Shown in pieces: positions 5,006 through 58,396 of a stretch of 58,539 bases of DNA (its first letter is position 1; each line of letters starts with the position of its first letter). Position numbers and translations under genes: made by a program. Origin of the DNA: a virus (lineage: Duplodnaviria; Caudoviricetes); IMG/VR virus record IMGVR_UViG_3300031857_000203, positions 1 through 58,539 of that record, one strand, 5' to 3'. Under the pieces are notes generated by a model. The model made no database searches, was not told the DNA's origin, and saw only the letters and a program-made list of their open reading frames with translations.

Positions 5006-8000
5006 ATGGAATTACCCGAGCAGGACAGGCAGGCGCTTATTGAGGCTGCCCGCAGGCGCACTCAACCTCAAGAAGGTGGTGCTGCATTCAAGTACCCCTC
5101 TTCTGGTAAGCGCCCTGAGAAACTGAACGCCTCCCGTGATGTGAACATGCCTGCCCAGATGGCTCGAGGCTGGGTAGCTGGAACTCTGGGGTTGCCTGGG
5201 GACATCGAGGCACTTGGCCGGATGGGGATTAACTTCGCCTTTGGCCGGGGCGGTGTGAATGTTGATGAGACGCCAGTCCTGCCGACTACTGAGTTCTACC
5301 AAGAGTACCTACCTGGGGGCGATGAGAGACCTGCTGCCAAGTTCGCATCGGGCTTAGGAGCGCTTGGTGGGGGCATGGGTAGCACTACCCTAGCCAGAGG
5401 CGCCGTGAAGGGCTCTAAGGCTGTAGGAAGGGCTCTGGGGCCGAAGGCTGCTGAGATGGCAGAGGGCTACCTGCAGAGGAGTGGACTGGCTCCGCAGTTG
5501 ACTGTGTACCACGGTACTCCGCACAAGTTTGCACCCGAAGAGGGCGCTCCTCTGGGAAAATTTAGGTCAGAGAAGATCGGCACTGGCGAAGGTGCTCAGG
5601 CTTATGGGCAAGGGCTCTATACCGCAGAAGCAAAAGAAGTAGGCAGTAGCTATCAAAAATCATTGTCTGATTTTGACATGTTTGTTGACGGCAAGCCATT
5701 TGACAGTGGCAATCCTGCCCATCGTGCGGCGCTTGAGCTTAAGCAAAGCGGAGGCGAGCCTGGACGCCAAGAGTTGATCGAAAAATACAAGCGGCAAATC
5801 GTTGACTTAAAGTCGAGAGATAAAAAGTGGGCAACAGAACTGGCGGCTTCTAAAGAAGCAGAGCTACCTTTTTTGGAGAGTGGCGACCTTCCTGCTTATT
5901 CTGAACAGTCAAGAGGCTATCTTTACACGGCTGATCTGCCTGACGAGATGATCCCGAAGATGCTGGACTGGGATAAGCCGTTGAGCCAGCAGTCTCCAGA
6001 TGTGCAAGAGGCATTACAGAATAGTGGCCTGCTTGTAGATGTGTCAAAAGTTGGAGAAGTAGCTGCTGAAAAGATCCGAAGGCTTGCGGAGCAACCGCGA
6101 GTTGCTGATTGGGCCAAACGAGACTTGTTGCAAACAGCGGCTCAATTAGAAAAGTCGCCATCTCCAAAGCATGTTGCGGGTGTCCTGAAAGGAATGCAAC
6201 TGGAATACGGGATTAACGCAGATTCTGGGCCGTTTTCAGATGTTGCAAATGACTTTCTGTCCTTTGTCAAAGGAATGCAGGCTGTGCCAAACATGGACAC
6301 AGGCGGTGGTGCTGTGTCTTATTTGGAGGCGATGTATGGCCCAGCAAACGCCTCACAAAGACTGAAAGAGGCAGGAATCCCAGGTATTAAATACCTTGAC
6401 GAGCAATCTCGCGGTATGACTGGCACTGGGAAATGGAAGGTGGATTTCAAAGATGGCACTAGCCAAGAGTTCAATTTCAAGCCTAACGATGATGTGCTTG
6501 AGCAGATGGGGGCAACAGCCACTCCCATCGGAACCCGCAACTTCGTGATCTTTCCTGGGGAAGAGCAAAAGCTACGCATCTTGCAACGCAACGAAGAGAA
6601 GCTGCCTGATCCGGCTGGCATGATTAAATCGCTGGAGGAAGAAGCGAAAGCGATAGCGCAAGGAATGCGAAATCGAGCCAAGGCAGATCGAGCCGCAGGA
6701 CTTGATCAAATCAGCGACGAGACGCTGTTGAGGAATAGAGAGGACAGCGACCGCATCCATAAGTTGATGGTTCAAGTTGAAGAGTTGAAGCGTCCGCAAG
6801 TAAAGATTGCTGCAGAAAAGCCAGATCCATCTTGGATGGAGGGTTTGCCTGATGCGCAGCGCAAAACCGTCAAGTCGTTTGATGAGTGGCAAGGTGACCG
6901 TGGCTTTTCATTGCGAAAGCCAGGATCAAATCCAGAGGATGACCTCCATACATCTGCGCAATCAAATTTCACGGACTACGAAGTAGTTCCTAAAGTTAGG
7001 TCGATACCTTTAGACGCTCTTGGTGGGCTTGGTGGTTATGACTCCCCTAAAGAGTTGGCTAGGATTGAGAACTTGGCGCAACAGATTGAAGGCAATAAAG
7101 AAATTACGCCTATCTTTGTCGGAGTTGACGCGACTGGCATGCCGTATGTTATTGAAGGTCAGCATCGCGCAAGAGCCTTTAAGAACTTGGGAATGCAGTC
7201 AATCCCGGCCAAAGTCATCGTTGACATGACACCTGAAATTGGTCGGGCAGAAGGCGGTCTAGTCACAGACACAGACGCTATTGCTGCAAAGCTCAAAGCT
7301 ACAGGCATGGATGATGAGAAGGCATTCATGCAAGCCTTGCGTATGGCAGATGCTAGGCAAGAAGCTCACATGGCAGGCGGTGGTCTGCTGAAGGCGCTGA
7401 AGGGTGCAGCAAAGGCCGAGGATGTTGCGAAGGTCGCAAAGCCTGCCAAGGCTGCGGCAGAGGCTTCTAAGCCAGCAACAAAGGTGGTGTCTGAACCGCA
7501 GGCATTGCAAAAAGCCAAAAAGGCTGGCTATCCAATGGCCCCCAGAAACCGTTGGTATGGAGAGGGAACTTACGACAAATCTGGCGGAAGACTTGAGATG
7601 ATGTCGCCAGATGAGTTTCTGAACAAAGTAAGGCCACTAGAAATTGACGATGCCTCAAGGGATAACATTGATTATTTGAAGCAGCACATTCAATCTGGCG
7701 GTGAACTTGATCCTTTGCTGATCACAAAGAGCGGGAAAGAGGATGGTCGGCATAGGGCTTATGCGGCTAAAGAGCTAGGCATTTCGGAATTGCCTGTCAT
7801 CCGATACGATAAAGAGATCCCTGCTGCGCCACAAGCAGAAGCACTTGAGACTGCCCGCAAGAATGCTGTGAAGATGCTGGGGTTGCCCGAGAACAACACC
7901 GCGATGGATCGGGCAAAGGCGATGGGGTTTGATACGCAGGGCTACAGAGGATCAACGGCGGTTGAAACCACGCATGACAAACCTGTGTGGTGGTCAGAAG

Positions 8001-8464
8001 ACCCAGACTATGCAAACGCGTATGCGGCGCACACGGTCAGGCCGCCTAAAGGACAACCAGACCCATACGCAGGCAACGTAATGCCTTTGCTGGTTAAGGT
8101 TGGAAAGGACAAAACCTTTGAGAAATTCAGTCCTGGCGGCGTGCCGCTTGATCCTTTCTCTGGGTTCAATGAGGGCGTAGAAACCGGCTTGCGTAGATAC
8201 GCCCACAATCAATTTACGGGCGACATGGGCGGCAAGGTCTGGGAGGCTTTGACTGTTCCGAAGAATGTGCGCTCGAGGTTCGCGGCCTTTGACCCTGCCC
8301 GTTCTTCTGAAAATGACTTGCTAGGCGCTGCCGATCCAGCCTTACTTGCTGGTGTTGCAGTGGGTTCTGGGATAGGTATTGATGCTATTAGGCGTCTTAA
8401 AAAAGAAGAGCAGAAGCCTGAAGAGCAGAAAAAAGCCAGAGGTGGCTTAACAAGGCGTGTATGA
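5006..8464 (+). CDS. Large polyvalent protein with two ADP-ribosyltransferase-like and two ParB-like domains
   Basis: VYHGT..GTGEGAQAYGQGLY..GIPGIKY..NFVIF; IEGQHR; EDGRHRAYAAKELG; GYRGST..WWSEDPDYA..GNVMPL..RSRFAAFDP. Confidence 0.7.
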   Translation: MELPEQDRQALIEAARRRTQPQEGGAAFKYPSSGKRPEKLNASRDVNMPAQMARGWVAGTLGLPGDIEALGRMGINFAFGRGGVNVDETPVLPTTEFYQEYLPGGDERPAAKFASGLGALGGGMGSTTLARGAVKGSKAVGRALGPKAAEMAEGYLQRSGLAPQLTVYHGTPHKFAPEEGAPLGKFRSEKIGTGEGAQAYGQGLYTAEAKEVGSSYQKSLSDFDMFVDGKPFDSGNPAHRAALELKQSGGEPGRQELIEKYKRQIVDLKSRDKKWATELAASKEAELPFLESGDLPAYSEQSRGYLYTADLPDEMIPKMLDWDKPLSQQSPDVQEALQNSGLLVDVSKVGEVAAEKIRRLAEQPRVADWAKRDLLQTAAQLEKSPSPKHVAGVLKGMQLEYGINADSGPFSDVANDFLSFVKGMQAVPNMDTGGGAVSYLEAMYGPANASQRLKEAGIPGIKYLDEQSRGMTGTGKWKVDFKDGTSQEFNFKPNDDVLEQMGATATPIGTRNFVIFPGEEQKLRILQRNEEKLPDPAGMIKSLEEEAKAIAQGMRNRAKADRAAGLDQISDETLLRNREDSDRIHKLMVQVEELKRPQVKIAAEKPDPSWMEGLPDAQRKTVKSFDEWQGDRGFSLRKPGSNPEDDLHTSAQSNFTDYEVVPKVRSIPLDALGGLGGYDSPKELARIENLAQQIEGNKEITPIFVGVDATGMPYVIEGQHRARAFKNLGMQSIPAKVIVDMTPEIGRAEGGLVTDTDAIAAKLKATGMDDEKAFMQALRMADARQEAHMAGGGLLKALKGAAKAEDVAKVAKPAKAAAEASKPATKVVSEPQALQKAKKAGYPMAPRNRWYGEGTYDKSGGRLEMMSPDEFLNKVRPLEIDDASRDNIDYLKQHIQSGGELDPLLITKSGKEDGRHRAYAAKELGISELPVIRYDKEIPAAPQAEALETARKNAVKMLGLPENNTAMDRAKAMGFDTQGYRGSTAVETTHDKPVWWSEDPDYANAYAAHTVRPPKGQPDPYAGNVMPLLVKVGKDKTFEKFSPGGVPLDPFSGFNEGVETGLRRYAHNQFTGDMGGKVWEALTVPKNVRSRFAAFDPARSSENDLLGAADPALLAGVAVGSGIGIDAIRRLKKEEQKPEEQKKARGGLTRRV

Positions 8465-15300: not shown

Positions 15301-16275
15301 ATGGGCCAATTTAAGCCGATGGTGAAAATGGTCACCACCGAGCCTTCAGTCGAACTGAAGCTCAAGAGTGGCGGCGCGGTGGAGAAGAAGATGCAGATGG
15401 GCGGTGCGCTTGCCGCTGCGCCTGCTGCTGGTCCTGCTATGCGTGCTCCGGCTCGCGGTGGGATGATGCCCGCGGGCGCCCCTGGGAAGCCTTCTATGGC
15501 TGCTCGGCGCCGTGCGATGATGGCCGGTCCTACTGGTGCTGCTCCGGCAGGCCCAGCGGGCATGGCTGGTCGCATGATGAAAGATGGTGGCGAGGCTACT
15601 AGCCTGAAGGCTCACGCCGGCATGCCTGCGTCCAAGGCCCACAAGGGCTTGAAGACGGGTGGTGTGGTGGATGGGCAAGGCGGCTACAAGTCTGGCGGCA
15701 TCATCAAGTCCAAGGTCGGCAAAACCACCAAGATGGACACTGCAAAGCCTGATCACTCACCAGCCAAGACTGGTGATGTGAAGATGGGCAACGCTGGTGG
15801 TTACGCTACTGGTGGCGTGGCGAAGGCAAATGCTGGCGGCTACAAGAAAGGTGGCGCAGCAAAAAAAGCCTACGCCACGGGGGGTCTTGTTGATTCAGGA
15901 CGTCCCGTGGCGATGCCTCAAGGAGCGAAGAAGCCTTCGAAGCCTGTAAGCATCAATCAACTGTCAGGCACCTTCAAAAAGGGTGGGGCGGTGATGATGA
16001 AAGAGGGCGGCAAGGCTGATGTTCCTCCCAAGGGTGTTGAGGATACGATTCAGACTGCACGAAACGAACGGGACTACAGGGCCTGGGAGAAGAGTCAGGT
16101 TGAAGAGAACAAGGCCGCGGCACAAAGCGCTGGCAGCATGTTCTCGTCAATTCCTCGTAAGCTGAAGGAAATCTTCTCGCCAGCTAAGGCGGCTAGTGCG
16201 CCTGGGGCAGTGACAAAGACTGAAAAGTCTGTAACAGTCACTCCAAAGAAGCGCGGCGGGGCCGTTACCTGCTGA
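15301..16275 (+). CDS. Basic low-complexity protein with ~11 [hydrophobic]-K/A-x-GG motifs; probable -1 frameshift isoform
   Basis: LKSGG, MKDGG, YKSGG, YATGG, YKKGG, FKKGG, MKEGG etc.; ends KKRGGAVTC. Confidence 0.85.
   Translation: MGQFKPMVKMVTTEPSVELKLKSGGAVEKKMQMGGALAAAPAAGPAMRAPARGGMMPAGAPGKPSMAARRRAMMAGPTGAAPAGPAGMAGRMMKDGGEATSLKAHAGMPASKAHKGLKTGGVVDGQGGYKSGGIIKSKVGKTTKMDTAKPDHSPAKTGDVKMGNAGGYATGGVAKANAGGYKKGGAAKKAYATGGLVDSGRPVAMPQGAKKPSKPVSINQLSGTFKKGGAVMMKEGGKADVPPKGVEDTIQTARNERDYRAWEKSQVEENKAAAQSAGSMFSSIPRKLKEIFSPAKAASAPGAVTKTEKSVTVTPKKRGGAVTC
15861..15912 (+). promoter_or_regulatory. Programmed -1 ribosomal frameshift signal
   Basis: In-frame A AAA AAA (15861-67), 5-nt spacer, CGCCACGGG (15873-81) pairing with CCCGTGGCG (15904-12); -1 frame reads SLRHGGSC then TGA at 15891-93. 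Confidence 0.75.
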
Positions 16276-16278
16276 ACC

Positions 16279-16302
16279 AAGCGGGGGCTTCGGCCCCCGC
16301 TT
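16279..16302 (+). terminator. Rho-independent terminator-like hairpin
   Basis: AAGCGGGGGC-TTCG-GCCCCCGCTT followed by pyrimidines. Confidence 0.75.
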
Positions 16303-16318
16303 CTCCTTTGAGGCTGCT

Positions 16319-16621
16319 ATGAAGCTGCAAACTGTTTCCAAAACTGGCGTTGGCTCCAGTTCCTCTTTGGTCATGAACACCAACATTTCCCCGTTCAACG
16401 TGGGATTTGGGGTGATCGTGACTGGCACGGTCAACTACACCGTGCAACATACGTTTGACGATCCTGCCGCGGGATTCACAACGTGGTTCTCTCACCCGAC
16501 GATTGCCTCGCTTGCGGCAAATGCTGATGGCAACTATGCGTTCCCAGTGACTGGCATCAAGTTGCTGGTCAATTCTGGGGCTGGTACTGCCACGCTGAAG
16601 CTGATCCAAGCTGGTATCTGA
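16319..16621 (+). CDS. Virion structural protein (putative)
   Basis: Beta-rich 100 aa; GAGG RBS. Confidence 0.7.
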   Translation: MKLQTVSKTGVGSSSSLVMNTNISPFNVGFGVIVTGTVNYTVQHTFDDPAAGFTTWFSHPTIASLAANADGNYAFPVTGIKLLVNSGAGTATLKLIQAGI

Positions 16622-16860: not shown

Positions 16861-17441
16861 TGGCCGACCAGAAGATTTCAGCGATGCCCTCTGCGGCAAC
16901 GCTAACGGGTGCAGAACTCATTCCGTTGGTGCAGTCTGGCGCAAACGTTCAGGCGACACTCAATACGGTCACTGACTTCGTTCGTGACTCGTATGCCGCG
17001 TTCTCTGACTTTACTGATCAGCCTGCAACGCTTGCCAACACGGCATACGCGATGACGTTCAACACCACTGACTACTCCAGTGGTATCACGTTGGTGTTGA
17101 ACTCTCGGATCACCGCCTCTCAGACTGGTGTGTACAACTTCCAGTGGAGTGGTCAGTTTGAGAACACGCAGTCGCAAGATCATGATGTGCGTGTTTGGAT
17201 CAAGATCAACGGCAACAACGTAACTGGTTCCACCGGATACATCTCTGTGCCGTCATCTCACGGTGGCGTGAATGGTCACATCGTGGTGGGGTGGAACTAC
17301 TACATCACGCTGAATGCTGGAGACTACGTTCAACTGTTCTGGGAAGCAGACAACACCAATGTCTCCCTGCAGACGTATGCCTCTGGAGCGAATTACCCGT
17401 CAACGGCTTCTGTAATTGCAACCATCAACAGGGTGCATTGA
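16860..17441 (+). CDS. Head/tail fibre-like protein with C-terminal C1q/BclA-like domain
   Basis: MADQKISAMP..LVQSG N-terminus; GVYNF..LNAGDYVQLF. Confidence 0.6.
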   Translation: MADQKISAMPSAATLTGAELIPLVQSGANVQATLNTVTDFVRDSYAAFSDFTDQPATLANTAYAMTFNTTDYSSGITLVLNSRITASQTGVYNFQWSGQFENTQSQDHDVRVWIKINGNNVTGSTGYISVPSSHGGVNGHIVVGWNYYITLNAGDYVQLFWEADNTNVSLQTYASGANYPSTASVIATINRVH

Positions 17442-17623
17442 TGCCAGCAAGAAGCAAAGCGCAGTTTCGCCTCATGAAGGCGGCTGAAAACAGCCCTGCA
17501 TTTGCCAAAAAGATGGGCATTAGCCCAATGGCGGCGGGTGAGTTTACTGAAGGCAACATCAAAGGCAAGAAATACGCTAAGTTGCCCGAGAAGAAGCTCA
17601 AACGAGGCGGCTGTTGCTGGTGA
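17441..17623 (+). CDS. Small basic protein (MPARSKAQFRLM..KLKRGGCCW)
   Basis: TGATG coupling; carries the GG motif. Confidence 0.75.
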   Translation: MPARSKAQFRLMKAAENSPAFAKKMGISPMAAGEFTEGNIKGKKYAKLPEKKLKRGGCCW

Positions 17624-17626
17624 CTT

Positions 17627-17875
17627 ATGACAAAAAATGTCAATTTAGCAGTTGGCAGGGGCGAAAAACTGTCAGTTGACCGCGGTGCTGGTCTGACTCA
17701 GAAGGGTCGAGAGAAGTACAACCGCGAGACAGGCAGTAACCTCAAGGCTCCGCAGCCTCAAGGGGGTTTTCGTAGAGACTCGTTCTGCGCGAGAATGGGG
17801 TCTATCGCTGAAAAGAGCGAGAAGGGAAGCCGATCAAGGGCTTCAATGAAGCGTTGGAACTGTCCGGGGTGGTGA
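17627..17875 (+). CDS. Small basic conserved phage protein (DUF6321-like)
   Basis: GLTQKGREKYNRETGSNLKAP..RRDSFCARM..RWNC. Confidence 0.7.
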   Translation: MTKNVNLAVGRGEKLSVDRGAGLTQKGREKYNRETGSNLKAPQPQGGFRRDSFCARMGSIAEKSEKGSRSRASMKRWNCPGW

Positions 17876-34741: not shown

Positions 34742-37700
34742 ATGGCAAACCCAAGTATTCGTGATGTTGCGTCAATGCTGCCTAGTGATTGGGCGACAAA
34801 AAGCGGATCACAAAGGATTGCTTGGTTCAATGAGAACAGCGTCACGCCAGATGAGCTGGCAATTGCTGGTATTCCAGATTCCGATATTGATGCCTTTTAT
34901 GACATGGGGTTCAAGGGGGGAGCGACGCGTACTGCATCCGATGCGCAAGTAAATGTGCAGGAGGCTTTTGGCATTTCTGGAGTTGTGGATGTTAAGGCGC
35001 TAAACAGGGCGCTAATTCTTGGGGGCACTTTTTACTTCCCAGCAGGCACATACACTTTTAGCAGCGCTCTGAACATACCGTCTAATGTTACGCTTATAGG
35101 AGACGGTGCTGGGGAAACTGTTTTTTTGGCGGGGGAGAACTACTCTCCTGATATGCCACTTGCGCGAGTAATACACCAAAGTAGCTCTGTAAATATTAAC
35201 GGAGTTACGTTTGATGGCGGCAATAATCCAAGGGGGTCGCGGGCTCTTGTTGAAATCAGAAATGTGTCTGACGTCAATTTTGCAAACAGCGGCGTTCAAA
35301 ATACCCCGTATACCGGGGTTGACCTTGGTGGCTCTCAAAACGTAACCATCCAAAACTCTGTTTTTGCAAATACAGGGAACCCGCAATCTACCAAGATGGG
35401 TGGCCCCGCTATTTACGCTGGCGGTGAAGGCCAATATCAATCTAAGAACATAAACGTGGTAAATAACACGTTTAAGGACAACAACTGGTCAGCCGCCTAC
35501 TTTATGCCAGATGGCGGGCAGTTTTCCAACAACACCTGTGTAAATAACGGCGAATCTACGCTGTTCATGAATCACACTGGCAAGAACGTCACGATTGCAA
35601 ACAATGTGATCGACGGCTCTCGTAGGATGGATATCTCTGGCAGTGGTCTTGAGCTTGGTGGTCAGAACCTGCAGGTCTACGGCAACAAGATTTCCAACTG
35701 CGCTGCAGATGGCATTTCGCTGACGGACGTATCTAACTCCGTCATTAAAGACAACGCGATCTTTAACAACGGTCAGGAGTCGTCTTCTTATCTAGGCTTT
35801 GCGAATGCTTCTGGCATCGGCGTTCATACGACTTCAAACGTATCAAACAACGTAATCCAGGGCAATAGCATCTATGACGACCAGCAGACGCCTACGCAGC
35901 AATACGCGATTGGCGGCTGGGCTGAAAACAACTCTAGCTTTCAAAACAGCACGATCAGCGACAACTCTGTTTATGGGAACGCCAAGGGTGCGGTTCTTGA
36001 GTTGACGCCTATCTTTGGGAGCAGTGTTGCTGAAGCGCAGAAGACGCAACAGCAGGCCCCGCAACCCGTTGCGCAACAGGCGGCGCAACCTGTAGCAGAG
36101 CAGCCTGCCGCTGCGCCCTCGCCTGCGCCGTCTGCCGCGTCGGGTTCAAATCCGTTTGCCAATCTAAAGTTTGAGTCGAGGTATCAGCCTACTGGTGCTT
36201 CTGTTGAGTCAGGTAACCCAACAGAACAATACGCTGGAGAGTTCGCCACTCTTGATGGCGCAGAGGTACAGAAGACATACGATTTAGTTGGGCAAACAGA
36301 ACAGGACACAGGCCAGTCTGTTTTCAGTGGGTACTCAAAATCAGTCGCTGCACCTGAATATGGACAAGGTTTTTATAGAACGGATGTTTACGATACCAAC
36401 GGCAAATATGTAAGTTCCAACATTCACAACCCCGGCGAAGACAAGTATGGTCTTCGTGCTCTCTCGCAATTGGCCGTCATGGCTGTGACCATGAACCCCG
36501 CCATTGGAGCCGTTATTGGCGGGTCTATCACGACTGGTTTGGGTATTTCTGCATCTGCGGCCACTAACGCTTTCATCGGAAACACGGTAATTAACACTGT
36601 GTTGAATGGTGGAGACATTGAGTCCGCCGTTAAGTCCTCTGTTGCCTCTTGGGCTGGTGCTCAAGCAGGACAACTTGCTGGTGAGACCGCTAAGACCATG
36701 TTCAGCAATCCCGAGGGGATCAAGCTGATCAGCAATGTTGCCAATCAAGCTACAAGAGCAGTTGTTCTCGGGCAAGACGTTGAGACTGCAGCCCTAAACA
36801 CGCTGGTTGCTGGTGCTGTTGACTATGGCACTGCCAAGATTCCCGGCTTCGATAGTCTTCCGGACGCGGTAAAGAGCACAATCAAGCAGTCAATCAGTGC
36901 TGCGGTTCAAGGCCAAGACATTGATGCTGGTGCGATGCTGGCTAATGCCGCCAAGGAAGGCTTGCTGGCATATGGCCTAAATCAGATCCCTCAGTTCAAG
37001 GATGCTGATGCGCGTACACAGTCGTTCATTACGACGATGCTGCGCTCGGGTATTGATGGTGGTGATCTGTCTGAGTCCGCGGTCAAATGGGCAATTGGGC
37101 AGGCCCAGCAAGAACTGCAAAAGGTCTTCAAGGCTGGCCCTGCGCTGGACGAACTGAAGAAGGCCGGGATCATTAGCGATGCCAGCTATTACGGCTTGGA
37201 TGACCGTCAGAAGGAGCTTGTTGACCGTCTTTCCCAGCAGAAAGACCCGAAGGCTGCTGCTGCTCAGTACATCAACGAGCAGACGACTACCCCTGAAGAG
37301 ATCCGCCAGTTCTACAAGCAGATCACTGGTAAGGACGCAACGGATGCTGATGCGGAGCTTCTGTCCACCTTTACAGGTATGGATGAGGCTACAGCGAAGG
37401 TGGGCCTAGACAACCAGATCAGGGCCAACATTGCTGTTGATGAGATGCGGTTTGATGAGTTGAACAGGGTGTTCAACGATCCGCAGATGACGGATCAAGA
37501 TCTCATCAACGTGATGAAGGAGTACAACATTACTCCTGCGTTTGTTGAGAAGATCACGGGCCAGAAGTACGACGACATCGTTCGGCAGATGGACGCCCGC
37601 TTCATGTCTGAGGATGAAGTGGTTGATGCGTTTAAGAGCGCACGGGAAGCTGCAGGACTTGAGCCTAGAGATCCGACGCCTGATGAGATCAGGCGGTACA

Positions 37701-40700
37701 CGGGGCTCAACGCAGGGGCTGTTGCGCAGATTCAGGCGGATACAGATAGAGAAGCCACCACGTTTGATGGCAGCACCTTCGGCAGCATGAAGTCTGCTAT
37801 GGAGGCCGCTAAGGCTCAGGGCTACAACAACTTCATTGGGCCTGATGGCAAGACCCACATGGTGTCTTCGCCTGTTGTGGCGATCCAGGCTGGGGCTTTT
37901 GACGGGACTACGTTCGGTTCTGTAAAGGCGGCAAGTGATGCCGCTAGAGAGGCCGGGAAGACGACCTTTGTCGGGCCTGACGAGCAGCACTACATGGTTC
38001 TAGATCCTGCCCAAGAAGGCGCGATCAAAGACGAGATTAAGCAGACTAAGACGTTTGGGCAGGCGTTTGCTGATGCGCGGGCAAAACTTGGCCCAGGCAG
38101 AACGTTTGAGTGGACGAACCCTGAGACTGGACAGACGAAGACCTACAACACCTACACCGCTACGGAACTGTACGACGGCTCCCGTGCGGGATCTAAGACT
38201 GATGCTGCCATCCTTGCCCACCAGAACGGCAAGACGATGTTCCAGTACGACGGAAAGATTTACAACATCCCTGCTGGCTCACTGGATAACGTAGGCAATC
38301 AAAACCGTGCAGAAGCTAGGCGTTTGGTTGAGGCTAATGCAACGGCTATCAGCAACGAGCAAGCCGCGGCTCTTGAGAAGAAGCTGCAGACCAAGAAGCT
38401 GGGTGACTTGGATGGTGTTTCTGGGGCCGTAGCTAATCTGTTTGGCTTGTCCTTGCAAGGCTTGGGAGAACAAGTCCGCTACTTTGCGACTGCCGGCGCT
38501 GCTGCTACTGGCGGGAACATCAACAACTATTACGACCGAGTTGGCGCTGCAATGGTGCAACTTGGTGAGTCGTTGACGTCTAGGTCATTGGATCAACAAA
38601 AGTCCTCCGCTGAAGCGGGGATGCGTGATATTGCCAAGGCAGACTTCAAAGATCAACCTTTGATGTTTGCAAAACTTGCAAGAGACAATTTTGGTTGGTG
38701 GCTGTCAGAAAACGGCAAAGAGATTGTTCAGGAGTTTGCTCCGTATGCTACGGCTATTGGAGTCGGTACTATCGCTGCGACAGGTGGAGCATCTGCCCCA
38801 GTAGTTGCTACTCTGGCCGCAGGTTCATCCGCAATTGTTGATGGGCTTGAAGCATTTGGGTCAGGTGTAAAAGAAGCATACGAAACCCTCAGGAAGCAGG
38901 GCGTACCAGAAGAGTACGCAAGATCACAGGCCATAAAGAATGGTTTGATGCACGCGCTAGTTGTTACGCCAGTTGAGTTTCTTGCAGACAAACTGACTCT
39001 TGGCGCTTTGACCTCTAGCCTGACAGGCGGCATCAAAGCCTACATGGCGAAGAACCTGCAGGCCACAGTTGCGCAGACGGTAGGTGAATGGATAGAAACT
39101 GTTGGTCAAGGGCTTTCTACGAAGATCACCACCCTTGACCGGGCGATGACCGTAGATGACCTCAAGCAAATCAATGTTGAATCTATATTTGCAATGTCTC
39201 TTGGAGGCGGTACTACTGCGTCTATTCTTGCTGGTGGCGCTGTTGTTGATTCTGCGGTAGTCGCAAAGGACAAGCTGGGTCAGAACGTCACTCTGCAAGA
39301 ACTGTTGAGTGGTACGCGAGATGTTGATCTCAACACTCTGAACCCGAACGCCGTAATTGGACAAAACGCACAAGGCCAGAACGTTACTCTTGGGTCGCTG
39401 TCCGCTGTAGCGATTGATCAGGGCTTCACGCCTGCAACGCTAAACGAGTCGTTGCCTAGTTCGTTCACAACGGACAACAACATTGTTCTGAGCCGCGATG
39501 CGCTGGGTAATGACATCACTTTGGGAGATGTGTTCTCGGGTCAGACTCCTGCGGAGCAAGCCCGTACAGTCATTCAAGATTATGTTGGCCTGGGACTGAC
39601 TGCCAAGACTCCGACAAACCGTGTAGTTGCTGTCAATCCTGATGGGACCGTAACCGTTGCTGATCAAACAGGCAACTCAACAACTGTACGAGCTGAGACA
39701 GACCTAAAAGTAGGCGATTCAGTCAATGTTGATCCCAATCGTGGGACGGTGTCCCTTGCGACTTCTCAGGTTGTTTCTGTTGATAGCGCCAACAACACTG
39801 CGACTGTTAAGAGTGAAGATGGCGCCACCAGGGTGGTCTCAACAACTGGTGACGTCAAGGTTGGCGACACAGTAAACACCAACCAAGTCAGCAACACCGC
39901 AACGGTTGCTTCTACTGCAGGGGCAACGACAGGTACTGCTGGAGCTACTACTGGGTCTACTGTAGGTACGGTTGTTGACACTGCAGGCAGCGGAACTGTT
40001 GTTGACACTACAGGCGCCACTACGGGTGCTACTGCAGGTGCTACTACAGGTGCTACTGCTGGGGCCACCTCTGGTGCGGCAACTGACACTACAGGTGCTA
40101 CTGTAGGAACTGTTGTTGACGCGGTAGCTGACACTGCAGGTGCCACTAATGGCGCTACTACTGGCGCTACTGCTGACGCGGCAGGATCTGACACTACAAG
40201 TGGTGCGGACATAACGGCTGGCGTTACTGCTGATAGCGCAGCGTCCGACACAACGCAGAACACTGGGACAGTAATTGCTGTAACCGACAGTGGCGATAAG
40301 GCTGTTGTTGAGCTTTCAGATGGAACTACGGCTGTCGTTGGTACGCCTGGGGGCGTGAATCCGGGAGACTCTGTAACTGTTGACCAGACTACCAACACTG
40401 CCAGCATTACTGGAGGTGGCAATACTGCTGTTACAGACGCGGTGGTGCAGAGCGTCAACACAACTAACGGCACGGCCACGGTTGTGACGGCTGATGGCAC
40501 CAAGACTATCGTTGATACGGGTGGTACGAGTGTTGCGCCTGGGGCTATTGTTAACGTCAACACCAGCACGGCGACTGTTGTTCCTACTGCGGCCCCAGGG
40601 CCTATTGATTCACAAGCTGTAGCAGCACCCGGTCAATATGTAGCGCCTGCTGCTGCTCCGGCGCCTGTATACCCAGTCAATCCTAGAGTTACATCGCAAG

Positions 40701-43700
40701 CTGATCTGAATGCGTATGTTATCAATCGGTACAAGTCTGGCGATACTCCGTCAGATATCTTGATGGATCTCTATTCATTTGGATACACAAGAGACGGCAT
40801 TGGGCCTACTGGGGCTATGCAGGCGCTGACAAACTCAGTCGCCGTTGCTGAAGAGGTCGGTGTTCAGCCTGGAGTGACGAGTGTTGCTGATCTTGGAAGC
40901 TACGTTATTGGTCAACTGTCTGCGGGCAAGACGCTGGATCAGGTTAAGTCAGGCCTTACGTCTCTTGGGTACGCGGCTGATTCAACAGATGTGACTCGGG
41001 CGATTGATGTTGCCAAGGCTAAACGTCCAGACTTCTTCCCGCAGGCTCCAACGCAAAGTGTGGCCGCACCTCAAGTACCGACACAGCAATACAAGGTCTT
41101 GAGCATCTTCCCTGACGAAGGTTTCGCTGTTGCGATGAACTCAAGGGATCAGTCCAGTGTTGCCATGAGGTATGAGCCTGGAGTTCAGGCGGGTACGGTT
41201 GTGCAGTTGCGCCCGCAAGACATTGGTATTCGTGATCCTTTGACGGGTGAGTTGAAGTTTGGGGCTACAACTGGAAGCCTTGCGGTTGTTATCTCCCGCA
41301 ACGGAAACGGCACATATAACGTACAAGATTCCTCTGGGAAGATTTACGCAGTAGCCGCACCTGCGGGTACTGCAATAGATAGCATCATTGAGGTTGATCC
41401 TGTTGCCAAAACAGTTGTTACGGCTGCGGCACCAACTCCTGCGCCTGCTCCTGCTCCGACACCTGCTCCAGCACCTGCAACAATTGCTCTAGACCCGAAT
41501 AAGACGTCCATCGCTCAACTTAATCAGTACATTGATCAGGCCTTGGCTTCTGGAAAGTCATTCGATCAAGTGGCTAATGCAATGCAAGCTGCTGGATACA
41601 GCAGTGCCTACATTGACCAGAAGCGTCAAGATGCCAAGGACGGAACGGCCACGGACGAAACAGATTGGGCCTTGTTTTTTAAGCAGAGAGAAGATCAAGC
41701 AAGACGGGAGGAAGAACTAAGACTGAATCCGCCTGCAGCGCCTACTCAGATTTCTGGTTGGGTGCTTAGTGTTGATGCTGAAAACGCTGTAATTCAAGAC
41801 GGATTTGGGAATAGAACGCTTGTCACTGCATTCCCTGGGATGAAGGTCGGCGGTCAATATACGATTAACCTTCAGAATCAAACGATGACCAACCCGTATA
41901 CGGGGGAGGTTACGTCTCTGACAGGCCCAGCTCCAACTGGTCGGATTGAGGGAAAGATCGTAGATGTAGGCCAGTACGGAGACACCGCAACGGTTGCGTT
42001 AGCAAACGGCAGTGTCGTACAAGTAGCTGCAGGTAATCCTGGGGAAAGTTTCACTTTCGGAGAATCAGTTACGGTTGATACGCAGGCGGGAACCAGATTG
42101 GCGCCTGCGTATAAGGTCACTACCAACCAAGCCACCGTAGTCGCAACAAACGAAACTGGCACCAAGGCGATTGTGGAGTCCCAAGACGGGACCACTGCAA
42201 TTGTTGACGCGCCTTTTGGTGTCACGACTGGTGATACGGTAGCTGTAGACCCTGCGACCAATACTGCGGTCTTGACTACTGAGCCAACCCCTGTAGAGAC
42301 AATTACTGAGCCAGTTACCACGCCATCCGTTGAGCCAACTACTGAGCCGACTGTTGAGCCTTCAACTGTTGTTGCAGTCAATAACGACAACACTTTGGCG
42401 GTTGTTCAGTCTCCTACTGGAGAGACTTCGGTTGTTCAAACATCTCCTGACATCAATGTCGGAGACAGCGTAACTGTTGATCCTGTAACCAACACTGCCA
42501 CGAAGGCAGATGCTGTTGTCAATACAGTTGCCGATACAGCTATTGATTTGACTACAGACAATCAAGCAATCGTAGTCGCAACAAACGACACCGGCACAAA
42601 GGCGATTGTGGAGTCTCCAGATGGGACTACGGCAATTGTTGACACGCCTTCTGGTGTTACGACTGGAGACTCAGTAACTGTTGACTCAACAAACAACACA
42701 GCCACCACAGTTGAAGACACAACTGTGACTGATGCAGCTACACAAACAGATACCACTCAAACTGCAGTAGTTGTTGCTGTCAATGACGATGGCACAAAAG
42801 CTGTTGTTGAGACAAACGACGGCAATGTAAAAGTTGTTGAAACGGTTGACCCTGTTAATACAGGAGATACGGTTTCGGTTGATCCAACAACCAATACGGC
42901 GACCAAGACAGATGTTGCTGTTGATGGCAATCAGGTTGTTAACACCGACACTGGCGTTGCGGTAGACACTGCCACTGGTGTGGCTACAAATCCAAATACG
43001 GGCATTGAGGTAGACACGAACACTGGTGTAGTGGTCAATCCAGATGCGAACACTGCTGTTGATACCAGTGCGAACACCGCAACAACGGTTAATCCAGACA
43101 CAAACACTCAGACAAATGTTGACACCAGCACTGGCACGACGACTACCGTTGATGCCGCCACTGGCACAGAGACTGTGGTTGACCCGACAACAAACACTCA
43201 GACAACCGTTGATCCAAACGCAAATACTCAGACGGCAACTGACGTAACGACGGGGACAACCACAACGGTTGATGCGAACACTGGCACTCAAACGACTGTT
43301 GACCCAACAACCAATACGCAAACAACAACAGACCCGAATGCCAACACGCAGACGAGTGTTGACAACAACACTGGGGTGACTACGACTGTTGATGCAAATA
43401 CAGGCACACAGACCGCAGTTGATGCAGCGACAAACACTCAGACAACCGTTGACCCAAATGCGGGCGTACAAACGACGGTTGATCCAAATGCCAACACTCA
43501 GACCGTCACAGACACGGCTAGTGGCATAACAACAACAGTTGATGCAAACACAGGAACACAGACAACTGTTGATCCAACCAGCAATACACAGACAGCGGTT
43601 GACCTGACAACCAACACTCAAACATCGACTGATGCAGGCACAAAAACAAACATAGATGAGCCTGAAATTCCTCCTGCAGATCCTCGTATCGCCCAATTGC

Positions 43701-44536
43701 AAGAGCGAATTGATCAATTAGTCCAGGCGGGTCTTGATGAGACGGCAGCCACAAATGCTGCAATGTCTGAGTTGACTGGTCAGTTGGCTACTCTGACGCA
43801 AGCACAAACAGCACAAGAACTGGCTGCGGCAAAGGCGGCAGAAGAAGCTGCAAGAAAAAAACGGATGCAAAGTGGCTTGCAGATGTTGGCGCCTGCTGCT
43901 GGTAAGCCTGCTGATGTTTTGCCTACTGTGTCTCCATTACAAACATCGGGCGCCGCAAAGTTCATCAGCCCCCTTGCCGCGTTCTTGTCTCAAGTTGAGA
44001 GGAACGACTACACCCCAACTCCAAGGCAGCAACAACCTATGACTCCAAGCCAACCGATGGAACAACCCGACCGCTACGCATACGGCAAAGAGCAGAGCAT
44101 TGACGAACTGCTTGATCCGTATGGAGAGAGGAAGTCTGAAGAAGCTCCAGCATTCAAGGCGGGTGGTCTAGCTACTCCGCTGTTTGCGATGGGTACTCGA
44201 TATGGCCAGTATGCAAAGGGTGGTTTGAACGTAGTTCACCACTCCGGTAAGGCTCGAGTTGACTTCCGTCGAGGGGATGCTGTGACAGGGCCGGGAGACG
44301 GGCAGTCTGACGACATTCCTGCGATGCTGGCCGATGGTGAATTCGTCTTTCCCGCGGACGTAGTTGCTGCGCTAGGAAATGGCTCAACGAAGGCTGGATC
44401 AGATAAACTCTACGACATGATGCACTCCATCCGTGCTCACGCGAGGTCGTCTGGTCCGAAGGATCTCCCACCGCCTGCCAAGTCTCCTCTTGAGTATCTC
44501 AAGAAGACCAGCAAGCAAAAGTCAGCTAGGGGTTAA
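34742..44536 (+). CDS. Giant 3264-aa virion/ejection-associated protein: N-terminal pectin-lyase-like beta-helix, repeat arrays, C-terminal GPGDGQSDDIPAMLADGEFV domain
   Basis: YFPAGTY..NVTLIGDG with N/S ladders; uninterrupted ORF; located before ejection genes. Confidence 0.8.
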   Translation: MANPSIRDVASMLPSDWATKSGSQRIAWFNENSVTPDELAIAGIPDSDIDAFYDMGFKGGATRTASDAQVNVQEAFGISGVVDVKALNRALILGGTFYFPAGTYTFSSALNIPSNVTLIGDGAGETVFLAGENYSPDMPLARVIHQSSSVNINGVTFDGGNNPRGSRALVEIRNVSDVNFANSGVQNTPYTGVDLGGSQNVTIQNSVFANTGNPQSTKMGGPAIYAGGEGQYQSKNINVVNNTFKDNNWSAAYFMPDGGQFSNNTCVNNGESTLFMNHTGKNVTIANNVIDGSRRMDISGSGLELGGQNLQVYGNKISNCAADGISLTDVSNSVIKDNAIFNNGQESSSYLGFANASGIGVHTTSNVSNNVIQGNSIYDDQQTPTQQYAIGGWAENNSSFQNSTISDNSVYGNAKGAVLELTPIFGSSVAEAQKTQQQAPQPVAQQAAQPVAEQPAAAPSPAPSAASGSNPFANLKFESRYQPTGASVESGNPTEQYAGEFATLDGAEVQKTYDLVGQTEQDTGQSVFSGYSKSVAAPEYGQGFYRTDVYDTNGKYVSSNIHNPGEDKYGLRALSQLAVMAVTMNPAIGAVIGGSITTGLGISASAATNAFIGNTVINTVLNGGDIESAVKSSVASWAGAQAGQLAGETAKTMFSNPEGIKLISNVANQATRAVVLGQDVETAALNTLVAGAVDYGTAKIPGFDSLPDAVKSTIKQSISAAVQGQDIDAGAMLANAAKEGLLAYGLNQIPQFKDADARTQSFITTMLRSGIDGGDLSESAVKWAIGQAQQELQKVFKAGPALDELKKAGIISDASYYGLDDRQKELVDRLSQQKDPKAAAAQYINEQTTTPEEIRQFYKQITGKDATDADAELLSTFTGMDEATAKVGLDNQIRANIAVDEMRFDELNRVFNDPQMTDQDLINVMKEYNITPAFVEKITGQKYDDIVRQMDARFMSEDEVVDAFKSAREAAGLEPRDPTPDEIRRYTGLNAGAVAQIQADTDREATTFDGSTFGSMKSAMEAAKAQGYNNFIGPDGKTHMVSSPVVAIQAGAFDGTTFGSVKAASDAAREAGKTTFVGPDEQHYMVLDPAQEGAIKDEIKQTKTFGQAFADARAKLGPGRTFEWTNPETGQTKTYNTYTATELYDGSRAGSKTDAAILAHQNGKTMFQYDGKIYNIPAGSLDNVGNQNRAEARRLVEANATAISNEQAAALEKKLQTKKLGDLDGVSGAVANLFGLSLQGLGEQVRYFATAGAAATGGNINNYYDRVGAAMVQLGESLTSRSLDQQKSSAEAGMRDIAKADFKDQPLMFAKLARDNFGWWLSENGKEIVQEFAPYATAIGVGTIAATGGASAPVVATLAAGSSAIVDGLEAFGSGVKEAYETLRKQGVPEEYARSQAIKNGLMHALVVTPVEFLADKLTLGALTSSLTGGIKAYMAKNLQATVAQTVGEWIETVGQGLSTKITTLDRAMTVDDLKQINVESIFAMSLGGGTTASILAGGAVVDSAVVAKDKLGQNVTLQELLSGTRDVDLNTLNPNAVIGQNAQGQNVTLGSLSAVAIDQGFTPATLNESLPSSFTTDNNIVLSRDALGNDITLGDVFSGQTPAEQARTVIQDYVGLGLTAKTPTNRVVAVNPDGTVTVADQTGNSTTVRAETDLKVGDSVNVDPNRGTVSLATSQVVSVDSANNTATVKSEDGATRVVSTTGDVKVGDTVNTNQVSNTATVASTAGATTGTAGATTGSTVGTVVDTAGSGTVVDTTGATTGATAGATTGATAGATSGAATDTTGATVGTVVDAVADTAGATNGATTGATADAAGSDTTSGADITAGVTADSAASDTTQNTGTVIAVTDSGDKAVVELSDGTTAVVGTPGGVNPGDSVTVDQTTNTASITGGGNTAVTDAVVQSVNTTNGTATVVTADGTKTIVDTGGTSVAPGAIVNVNTSTATVVPTAAPGPIDSQAVAAPGQYVAPAAAPAPVYPVNPRVTSQADLNAYVINRYKSGDTPSDILMDLYSFGYTRDGIGPTGAMQALTNSVAVAEEVGVQPGVTSVADLGSYVIGQLSAGKTLDQVKSGLTSLGYAADSTDVTRAIDVAKAKRPDFFPQAPTQSVAAPQVPTQQYKVLSIFPDEGFAVAMNSRDQSSVAMRYEPGVQAGTVVQLRPQDIGIRDPLTGELKFGATTGSLAVVISRNGNGTYNVQDSSGKIYAVAAPAGTAIDSIIEVDPVAKTVVTAAAPTPAPAPAPTPAPAPATIALDPNKTSIAQLNQYIDQALASGKSFDQVANAMQAAGYSSAYIDQKRQDAKDGTATDETDWALFFKQREDQARREEELRLNPPAAPTQISGWVLSVDAENAVIQDGFGNRTLVTAFPGMKVGGQYTINLQNQTMTNPYTGEVTSLTGPAPTGRIEGKIVDVGQYGDTATVALANGSVVQVAAGNPGESFTFGESVTVDTQAGTRLAPAYKVTTNQATVVATNETGTKAIVESQDGTTAIVDAPFGVTTGDTVAVDPATNTAVLTTEPTPVETITEPVTTPSVEPTTEPTVEPSTVVAVNNDNTLAVVQSPTGETSVVQTSPDINVGDSVTVDPVTNTATKADAVVNTVADTAIDLTTDNQAIVVATNDTGTKAIVESPDGTTAIVDTPSGVTTGDSVTVDSTNNTATTVEDTTVTDAATQTDTTQTAVVVAVNDDGTKAVVETNDGNVKVVETVDPVNTGDTVSVDPTTNTATKTDVAVDGNQVVNTDTGVAVDTATGVATNPNTGIEVDTNTGVVVNPDANTAVDTSANTATTVNPDTNTQTNVDTSTGTTTTVDAATGTETVVDPTTNTQTTVDPNANTQTATDVTTGTTTTVDANTGTQTTVDPTTNTQTTTDPNANTQTSVDNNTGVTTTVDANTGTQTAVDAATNTQTTVDPNAGVQTTVDPNANTQTVTDTASGITTTVDANTGTQTTVDPTSNTQTAVDLTTNTQTSTDAGTKTNIDEPEIPPADPRIAQLQERIDQLVQAGLDETAATNAAMSELTGQLATLTQAQTAQELAAAKAAEEAARKKRMQSGLQMLAPAAGKPADVLPTVSPLQTSGAAKFISPLAAFLSQVERNDYTPTPRQQQPMTPSQPMEQPDRYAYGKEQSIDELLDPYGERKSEEAPAFKAGGLATPLFAMGTRYGQYAKGGLNVVHHSGKARVDFRRGDAVTGPGDGQSDDIPAMLADGEFVFPADVVAALGNGSTKAGSDKLYDMMHSIRAHARSSGPKDLPPPAKSPLEYLKKTSKQKSARG

Positions 44537-58158: not shown

Positions 58159-58387
58159 GGGCGTCATCCTGAACTGGGGTAACAAGACCCCCTGCACCAT
58201 CATCGAGGATCGCAAGACCCTCTTGGTGGTGACGGAAGACATCGCAGGCAAGCCATGTCCTGAAGGAACCAAGAGGTACTTCAAGCGCTACAAGGATCAC
58301 TGGGCAGAGTGCGTCTTCAAGCCAACCACCAACAGGTGGGCTGTTGCAGGAGAGGCGACTCTGGTGATTGACCCTACAAAAAAGTAG
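58151..58387 (+). CDS. Allele of 1833-2066
   Basis: MTKGVILNWG..IDPTKK. Confidence 0.75.
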   Translation: MTKGVILNWGNKTPCTIIEDRKTLLVVTEDIAGKPCPEGTKRYFKRYKDHWAECVFKPTTNRWAVAGEATLVIDPTKK

Positions 58388-58396
58388 GAAAAGATG

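Follow-up and report, generated by a model that had tools for sequence, protein, structure and literature searches.

We report that a gene of an uncultured freshwater phage (15301-16275, 324 amino acids) contains, at a Lys-Lys pair in codons 188 and 189, what is very probably a conserved programmed -1 ribosomal frameshift in the style of dnaX and csoS2, one that would truncate the protein. The window, by which we mean the whole stretch of DNA that was analysed, is a complete viral record of 58,539 bases (CheckV 100%); the gene and all elements of the frameshift cassette lie on its + strand. The cassette consists of an in-phase heptamer of A residues, a stable hairpin a few nucleotides (nt) downstream and a nearby stop codon in the -1 frame, and it is conserved in both reading frames among the relatives that we collected. 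From these sequences we infer that slippage occurs and that the two resulting isoforms have different roles.

A slippery heptamer, a nested hairpin and a nearby -1 stop codon

The slippery heptamer A_AAA_AAA (15861-15867) falls in the codons GCA AAA AAA and has the X_XXY_YYZ phase relative to the start of the gene [(15861-15301) mod 3 = 2]. It is followed by a 5-nt spacer, GCCUA (15868-15872), and by a hairpin (15873-15912) with a 10-base-pair outer stem, a 1x1 mismatch, a 6-base-pair inner stem and a 6-nt loop; the first of the pairs kept in all sequences lies 6 nt from the heptamer. In the outer stem, CGCCACGGG(G) at 15873-15882 pairs with (U)CCCGUGGCG at 15903-15912, while in the inner stem GUCUUG (15884-15889) pairs with CAGGAC (15896-15901), including one G-U pair. 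The computed energy of the hairpin is -32.5 kcal/mol (z -5.24), and none of 200 shuffled sequences was equally stable (0/200).

In the 0 frame the site reads KKAYATGGLV. In the -1 frame, the two Lys residues are followed by AGC CUA CGC CAC GGG GGG UCU UGU UGA (15867-15893), that is, by SLRHGGSC and a stop codon (TGA at 15891-15893 of the DNA), such that the shifted product would have 189 + 8 = 197 amino acids. A run of six G residues (15879-15884) encodes Gly-Gly in both frames and contributes to the stem's 5' arm. Gly194 is GGG in 66 of 71 distinct genes, and elsewhere in the gene GGG is a minor Gly codon. An earlier prediction from this sequence (the original prediction) had described the heptamer, spacer, nested stems, both frame readings, the 197-residue product, the C-termini and the mostly AAG usage for Lys, all of which match the sequence. 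A scan of 15301-16400 against Rfam gave no relevant match at E <= 1.

The original prediction had also proposed an upstream stimulator resembling a Shine-Dalgarno (SD) element, AAAGGTGG (15847-15854), and this part was not supported. The element lies 6 nt upstream of the heptamer; the SD-like element of dnaX lies about 10 nt upstream. We do not count it as a stimulator because it is simply the codons for K-G-G, in which the Gly wobble position carries T or C but in no case the A of GGAGG (Gly184 codon: GGT 48, GGC 23, GGA 0). Thus, judging from these codons, AAAGGTGG is probably not a stimulator.

Conservation of the heptamer and of its flanking wobble positions

The significance of the site lies in its conservation, because a lone A-heptamer and a nearby -1 stop fall within chance: AAAAAAR occurs 13 times in the window, with 16.2 occurrences expected, and a -1 stop is met within 9 codons from about 33% of codon positions in these genes. 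A first search for relatives of the 324-residue protein scored 8000 candidates, of which 5021 matched at E <= 0.001; every one of these was either without a name or called 'hypothetical'. A scan of viral contigs with the window protein then gave 587 encoding stretches, of which the best 80 were used (45-92% amino acid identity). A second scan, with the homolog from MW202545 as query, gave 539 viral-contig stretches, the best 80 of which were used; MW202545, an uncultured record, is the sole entry of the phage collection with a homolog of the gene. Together with a third set of 11 loci from GTDB contigs, the pooled total was 173 loci.

As judged from a codon alignment, NNA AAA AAR is present at the aligned Lys-Lys in the window and in all 80 closest loci (80/80). 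K188 is AAA in 81/81 genes, with no change on the tree, and the second Lys codon (K189) is AAA in 67 and AAG in 14 of the 81 genes, with 10 toggles on the tree. Moreover, codon 187 always ends in A (81/81) despite 9 residue changes (A, P, T), codon 196 ends in T in 75/81 genes despite 16 residue changes (V, L, S, R, A, C, T), and Val197 is GTT in 75/75. The fixed wobbles of codons 187 and 196, together with this GTT, produce the heptamer and the -1 UGU-UGA/UAA, respectively. Synonymous changes were counted on a tree built without the cassette columns. The 140 columns with a conserved residue had a median of 12.5 synonymous codon changes; only E14, K144, A187 (GCA), K188 and V197 had none or one, and three of these five lie within the cassette. 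The other conserved Lys columns are mostly AAG, with 1-15 changes each.

Similarly, in the second set (the 80 loci and MW202545), 78/81 loci have an in-phase heptamer at the same motif; of the others, L124 has GK, L152 has AAG AAG and L153 stops at a contig edge. In the GTDB set the heptamer is present in 8/11 loci, L169 has KM, and two loci were uninformative. The pooled loci comprise 131 distinct slippery contexts, 84 with A7 and 47 with A6G. Thus, the conservation of AAAAAA(A/G) anticipated in the original prediction was found, in phase, throughout the window's closest relatives and widely beyond them.

Five other KK repeat contexts within these same proteins served as an internal control (L079, L118, L119, L150, L170). 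None is an in-phase heptamer: four are AAG AAG and one is GCC AAA AAG. We also considered as a second frameshift site the only other in-phase heptamer that was identified among the 13 AAAAAAR matches, an A_AAA_AAA at 43855-43861 in a gene for a 3264-residue protein, which would give a 14-residue -1 tail ending in GACCW-stop, reminiscent of the end of the neighbouring open reading frame (ORF) p60. This candidate was rejected for want of conservation among the 80 relatives examined: over the part covered, 72/80 lack any in-phase A-heptamer, and a comparable -1 tail is present in 0/80. The heptamer at 43855 is, on this comparison, probably a chance occurrence.

One 5' arm pairs with three alternative 3' arms

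Since an alignment of the 81 close genes mixes three stem arrangements, named structures were scored type by type. Type I comprises 66 distinct sequences with 8-residue Cys-ended tails, taken from all three locus sets, and its 3' arm consists of the nearby RPVAMP codons. Seven core pairs are formed in 66/66 sequences, and the pair between the wobble bases of Ala192 and Val203 (pair 18-54) is C-G in 24, U-A in 24, G-C in 17 and G-U in 1, and is never unpaired (0). The covariation score of type I was reached by 0/500 shuffles, and slid registers pair in 41-49% of cells. Relatives with 8-residue tails gave folds of -19.5 to -35.7 kcal/mol.

Type II sequences, which belong to sister lineages, have a 6-residue tail that ends right after GG, by way of a fixed GGT-AAY. 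They share the 5' arm with type I, and its partner is a distal CCCGUGGC about 60 nt further on (-29 to -46 kcal/mol); folds of 55 nt appear unstructured, and it is windows of 93 nt that reveal the long-range stem. Eight core pairs are present in 25/25 aligned type II sequences, and pair 21-84 is G-C in 17, A-U in 5 and G-U in 3. In type III (A_AAA_AAG UUU/UAU GCU, tail VC), a long-range helix is formed with later PVS codons, with energies of -32 to -37 kcal/mol in six sequences. Stem covariation, another expectation of the original prediction, was thus seen as compensatory pairs in both type I (66 sequences) and type II (25 sequences).

The -1 tail ends in Cys in the window's lineage

A Cys-stop ends the -1 tail in 80/81 close genes: 74 have 8-residue Cys-ended tails (for example SLRHGGSC or SLRYGGAC), 6 have VC, and the remaining one, L071, has SLCYGGRS. 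All 131 contexts stop within 9 codons, with tails of 2 residues in 7, 6 residues in 29, 8 residues in 90 and 9 residues in 5; 95 of these tails end in Cys, and 30 end in GG, GR or RG without Cys. The original prediction had held that the short and full-length products have equivalent C-termini. This is borne out in the window's lineage, where the -1 GG-x-C-stop is kept and its wobble bases are held constant through changes of the 0-frame residue, and fails elsewhere, where the 30 contexts without Cys are found. Thus, on the pattern of these codons, selection maintains a Cys-ended tail in the lineage of the window, and such a tail is not universal.

In many longer relatives we noted a second in-phase A_AAA_AAG about 40-130 codons after the first, at the motif GG-x-x-KK-F/Y (L082, L087, L089, L092, L093, L095, L097, L098, L100, L105, L106, L113 and L120). 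The -1 tails at this second site are V, VC or VF followed by a stop, and 20 of 28 distinct KK[FY] contexts are slippery. From their sequences, the longer relatives may have two truncating frameshift sites per protein.

Weighing a programmed frameshift against other explanations

Several findings weigh against a programmed frameshift, or against its being general. No homolog of the gene was found in the cultured phages of the phage collection, and there are three homologous sites without a heptamer (L124, L152 and L169), which indicates that the frameshift is dispensable in some lineages. In E. coli, A_AAA_AAA is far less prone to shifting than A_AAA_AAG (PMC5009743). As to the structure, the register of the inner stem is not conserved, although each sequence forms some inner helix. 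RNAalifold on the mixed 81-sequence alignment gave a poor consensus and did not recover the stem. Only one to three of the stem pairs are capable of covariation, because the encoded residues fix the remaining positions. Finally, the stem alone could explain the GGG codons.

We considered that the hairpin and the A-run might be kept for a role other than recoding, for instance as a translational pause for folding or assembly, as an RNase or mRNA-stability element, or as an operator bound by a protein, in which case the -1 stop would be incidental. Stable covarying structures within coding regions can indeed have several roles, and the structure here is conserved. We nevertheless think this explanation unlikely, since it leaves unexplained both the final A of the codon before KK, constant through 9 residue changes, and the failure of K188 ever to become AAG, as well as the two fixed wobbles that make the -1 UGU-UGA/UAA under 16 residue changes; a distance of 5-6 nt from an in-phase heptamer is, moreover, the geometry of a frameshift. 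We also considered that the site might be a look-alike that arose by chance or composition from a Lys-Lys motif and a Gly-rich, GC-rich stretch. The lack of enrichment of AAAAAAR and the frequency of -1 stops given above would fit such an origin, as would the high conservation of the 0-frame peptide GGxAKKAYATGGxV...PVAMP itself. We find this scarcely credible given the frozen synonymous sites confined to the cassette, the covarying wobble bases, and the lack of conservation of the other KK repeats and of the heptamer at 43855.

The short isoform might instead come from transcriptional slippage, with RNA polymerase adding an A in the A-run; A-runs can permit such slippage, and one inserted A would lead to the same reading frame. 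We judge this very unlikely. The run is no longer than 7 A's at this site and drops to 6 in 47 of the 131 contexts, and productive transcriptional slippage sites in bacteria are usually longer than 6-7 A's; these 47 six-A (A6G) contexts fit tRNA slippage better than polymerase slippage. A hairpin 5-6 nt downstream has no known role in polymerase slippage, and two contigs from RNA libraries (X19 and X20) span the site without an insertion or deletion, although contigs hide minority forms and these may stem from DNA.

Proposed mechanism

If the site is a programmed -1 frameshift, ribosomes on AAA AAA (15862-15867) would run into the stable hairpin 5-6 nt downstream, and in a fraction of them the two tRNA-Lys would slip back onto A AAA AA. 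The slipped ribosomes would translate the eight -1 codons (SLRHGGSC) and terminate at the UGA. One mRNA would then yield both the full-length 324-residue protein and the 197-residue protein, which would have in common the conserved N-terminus and the GG-repeat region. The short product would lack the C-terminal 135 residues, among them the helix predicted at 247-291 and, at the end of the chain, the conserved SVTKTEKSVTVTP...KKRGG-x-x-C. In the window's lineage, both products would end in a single terminal Cys after Gly-Gly. If the two isoforms behave like CsoS2A/B, the C-terminal part of one might serve as an anchor that the other lacks.

Comparison with known frameshifting systems

The original prediction had not recognised as described a truncating frameshift that would set the stoichiometry of two putative internal head proteins. 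Truncating -1 frameshifts are known in dnaX and csoS2, and the layout is thus not unprecedented; copA/CopA(Z) is another truncating bacterial frameshift. In E. coli dnaX, a heptamer of the A_AAA_AAG type with a stem-loop a few nt downstream and a nearly immediate stop yields a shorter product (PMC5009743). The type of heptamer, the nearby downstream stem and the truncating outcome, here a predicted one, are common to both systems. The genes are unrelated, however, and the phage cassette differs in having neither a conserved upstream SD-like element nor a match to an Rfam model; moreover, most phage members use A_AAA_AAA, and the phage -1 tail has 8 residues with a conserved terminal Cys.

The system closest in function is csoS2, in which a -1 shift with a 3' stem-loop and without a 5' SD element produces a shortened isoform with 3 final residues read in the -1 frame, and for which a frameshift is predicted in only 79 of 162 species with the gene (PMC5009743). 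CsoS2, with its truncated isoform, is a repetitive and disordered component of the alpha-carboxysome, an icosahedral protein shell; the phage protein is basic, disordered and GG-repetitive. This is a likeness in the way of working and not a family membership: no sequence relationship was detected (no Pfam match at E <= 0.1; no PDB match at E <= 1), the one gene is cellular and the other from a phage, and the phage -1 tail repeats the GG-x-Cys ending of the full-length protein.

Known phage frameshifts mostly lengthen tail chaperones or capsid proteins (PMC5009743). Like the lambda tail assembly chaperone G/GT and capsid gene 10 of T7/T3, the phage gene belongs to a morphogenesis module in which one mRNA gives, or here would give, two products in a fixed ratio. 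In those systems the shift comes late in the gene, close to its 3' end, and lengthens the protein (PMC5009743), whereas the shift here would be internal, at codon 189 of 324, and would stop after 8 codons, truncating the product. The location differs as well, since the gene here comes after the capsid gene and before a weak adaptor match, while G/GT is upstream of the tape-measure gene. Among the frameshifts annotated in SEA-PHAGES, 2397 of 2476 are in tail assembly chaperones (PMC10885494).

The full-length protein and its genomic setting

The 324-residue protein (32.6 kDa, isoelectric point 10.3) contains 51 Gly, 53 Ala, 42 Lys, 24 Pro and 21 Met, about 15 GG motifs as counted by eye, and a single Cys, which is its last residue. 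It ends in KKRGGAVTC followed by the stop codon (16246-16275). The C-terminal Cys is present in 67/69 distinct close homologs, 46/69 of which have no further Cys. The gene has 34 AAG and 8 AAA codons for Lys, and 21 other long ORFs have 335 AAG and 110 AAA. In an AlphaFold2 model built with 63 sequences, the mean predicted local distance difference test score was 46.9 and helices were formed at 66-74 and 247-291 only; the protein is, by this model and its composition, disordered and very basic. Searches assigned it to no Pfam (E <= 0.1) or PHROG family, a search of PDB with the 63-sequence profile gave no match at E <= 1, and ESM Atlas gave only hypothetical viral clusters. Likewise, no Pfam domain was found in the longer relatives (62 proteins).

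Upstream of the gene lie the small and large terminase genes, an 847-residue ORF, a scaffold-like ORF and the major capsid gene (Phage_capsid_4 match, 44.7 bits); at the position of the 847-residue ORF, MW202545 annotates a head-to-tail connecting protein. A 149-residue ORF stands between the capsid gene and the Gly-rich gene, and downstream of the latter there is a weak adaptor match (SU10_adaptor, 23.6 bits, under the Pfam cut-off). From this gene order, a virion role for the 324-residue protein is plausible, and the name of internal head protein, which the original prediction gave it, is a putative one. Two products of 180 and 200 residues, encoded upstream of the capsid gene, were inspected by eye as candidate GG-site proteases; PHROGs places them only in families of unknown function. 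Directly 3' of the gene's stop, at 16280-16312, a GC-rich hairpin (AGCGGGGGC TTCG GCCCCCGCT) precedes a T-rich run and looks, from its sequence, like an intrinsic terminator.

Of the bins of metagenome-assembled genomes that contain relatives, 7/11 are betaproteobacterial, and from this count a freshwater Burkholderiales host is a tentative guess; the phage encodes no tRNA. Among cultured relatives, the Caulobacter phages RW, RLK, KcrB and GB2A share 76.6% of the capsid protein. In RW, the sole Caulobacter phage inspected, a homolog of the frameshift gene is absent. We noted in RW (L083 7088-8593) a Cys-rich ORF of 502 residues downstream of the capsid gene, at the position of the 149-residue ORF and the Gly-rich gene, which looks like an inserted endonuclease-type gene.

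A terminal motif that may be encoded twice

The two ORFs p60 and p82 (17441-17875, + strand) also have a Cys near the C-terminus: p60 (17441-17623) ends in KLKRGGCCW-stop, and p82 (17627-17875) ends in RWNCPGW-stop. Judging from these ends, p60 and p82 may belong to the same functional set as the 324-residue protein. The -1 tail may duplicate the C-terminal tag of the 324-residue protein itself, made up of a basic residue, Gly-Gly, 1-3 further residues and a terminal Cys, with the overlapping second copy in the G6 run. Both isoforms, perhaps along with p60 and p82, would be attached or cross-linked through a single thiol that follows a flexible GG; alternatively, the chains would be trimmed at GG. 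The frameshift would then fix the proportions of short and long tethers formed by a disordered protein that neutralises DNA-like charge inside the particle. We put forward the whole of this reading, from copied tag through shared tether or trimming to a ratio set by frameshifting, as a tentative possibility rather than a probable one. The basic tail of the hepatitis B core protein ends in a terminal Cys. Literature searches at the level of abstracts gave no account of this protein family or of a dual-coded terminal motif, and we know of no described case in which a truncated recoding product keeps the address label of the full-length protein through a terminal motif encoded in two frames.

Other features of the window

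The ORFs p60 and p82 are in one frame and are separated by TGA CTT alone (the TGA of p60 is at 17621-17623). In 36/52 relatives, the ORF beginning at the match to p60 runs through to a p82-type end, and in 16/52 it has a GG..CW-type or other end. The arrangement may reflect gene splitting, gene fusion or readthrough of the stop codon. With its N-terminus, p60 matches PHROG families, the longer members of which are annotated as virion structural proteins.

The ORF with the heptamer at 43855 (34742-44536, 3264 residues) includes an OB-like stretch of the proteasomal-ATPase type as well as a region of right-handed beta-helix. An ORF of 1152 residues (5006-8464) has a weak match to the ParB N-terminal domain (25 bits, narrowly below the cut-off). 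An identical 20-nt hairpin-like motif (CCCTAC AAAAAA GTAGG core) occurs at 2048-2067 and 58369-58388, with 0 expected by chance; since one copy is found close to each end of the record, the motif may belong to a terminal repeat, or it may be a stem-loop with a regulatory or terminator function.

Significance

If the site functions as we propose, it would add a widespread truncating frameshift in a morphogenesis gene other than the tail chaperone. It also opens a first way into a family of disordered, basic phage proteins that is abundant and entirely without annotation. Since gene callers overlook the short product, the virion proteomes of such phages would be misread. The family also offers a natural series for the study of -1 stimulators, in which one heptamer and one 5' arm are combined with three alternative 3' arms and with wobble covariation. 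Finally, it raises the idea that a recoding tail may be selected to copy the terminal motif of the full-length protein.

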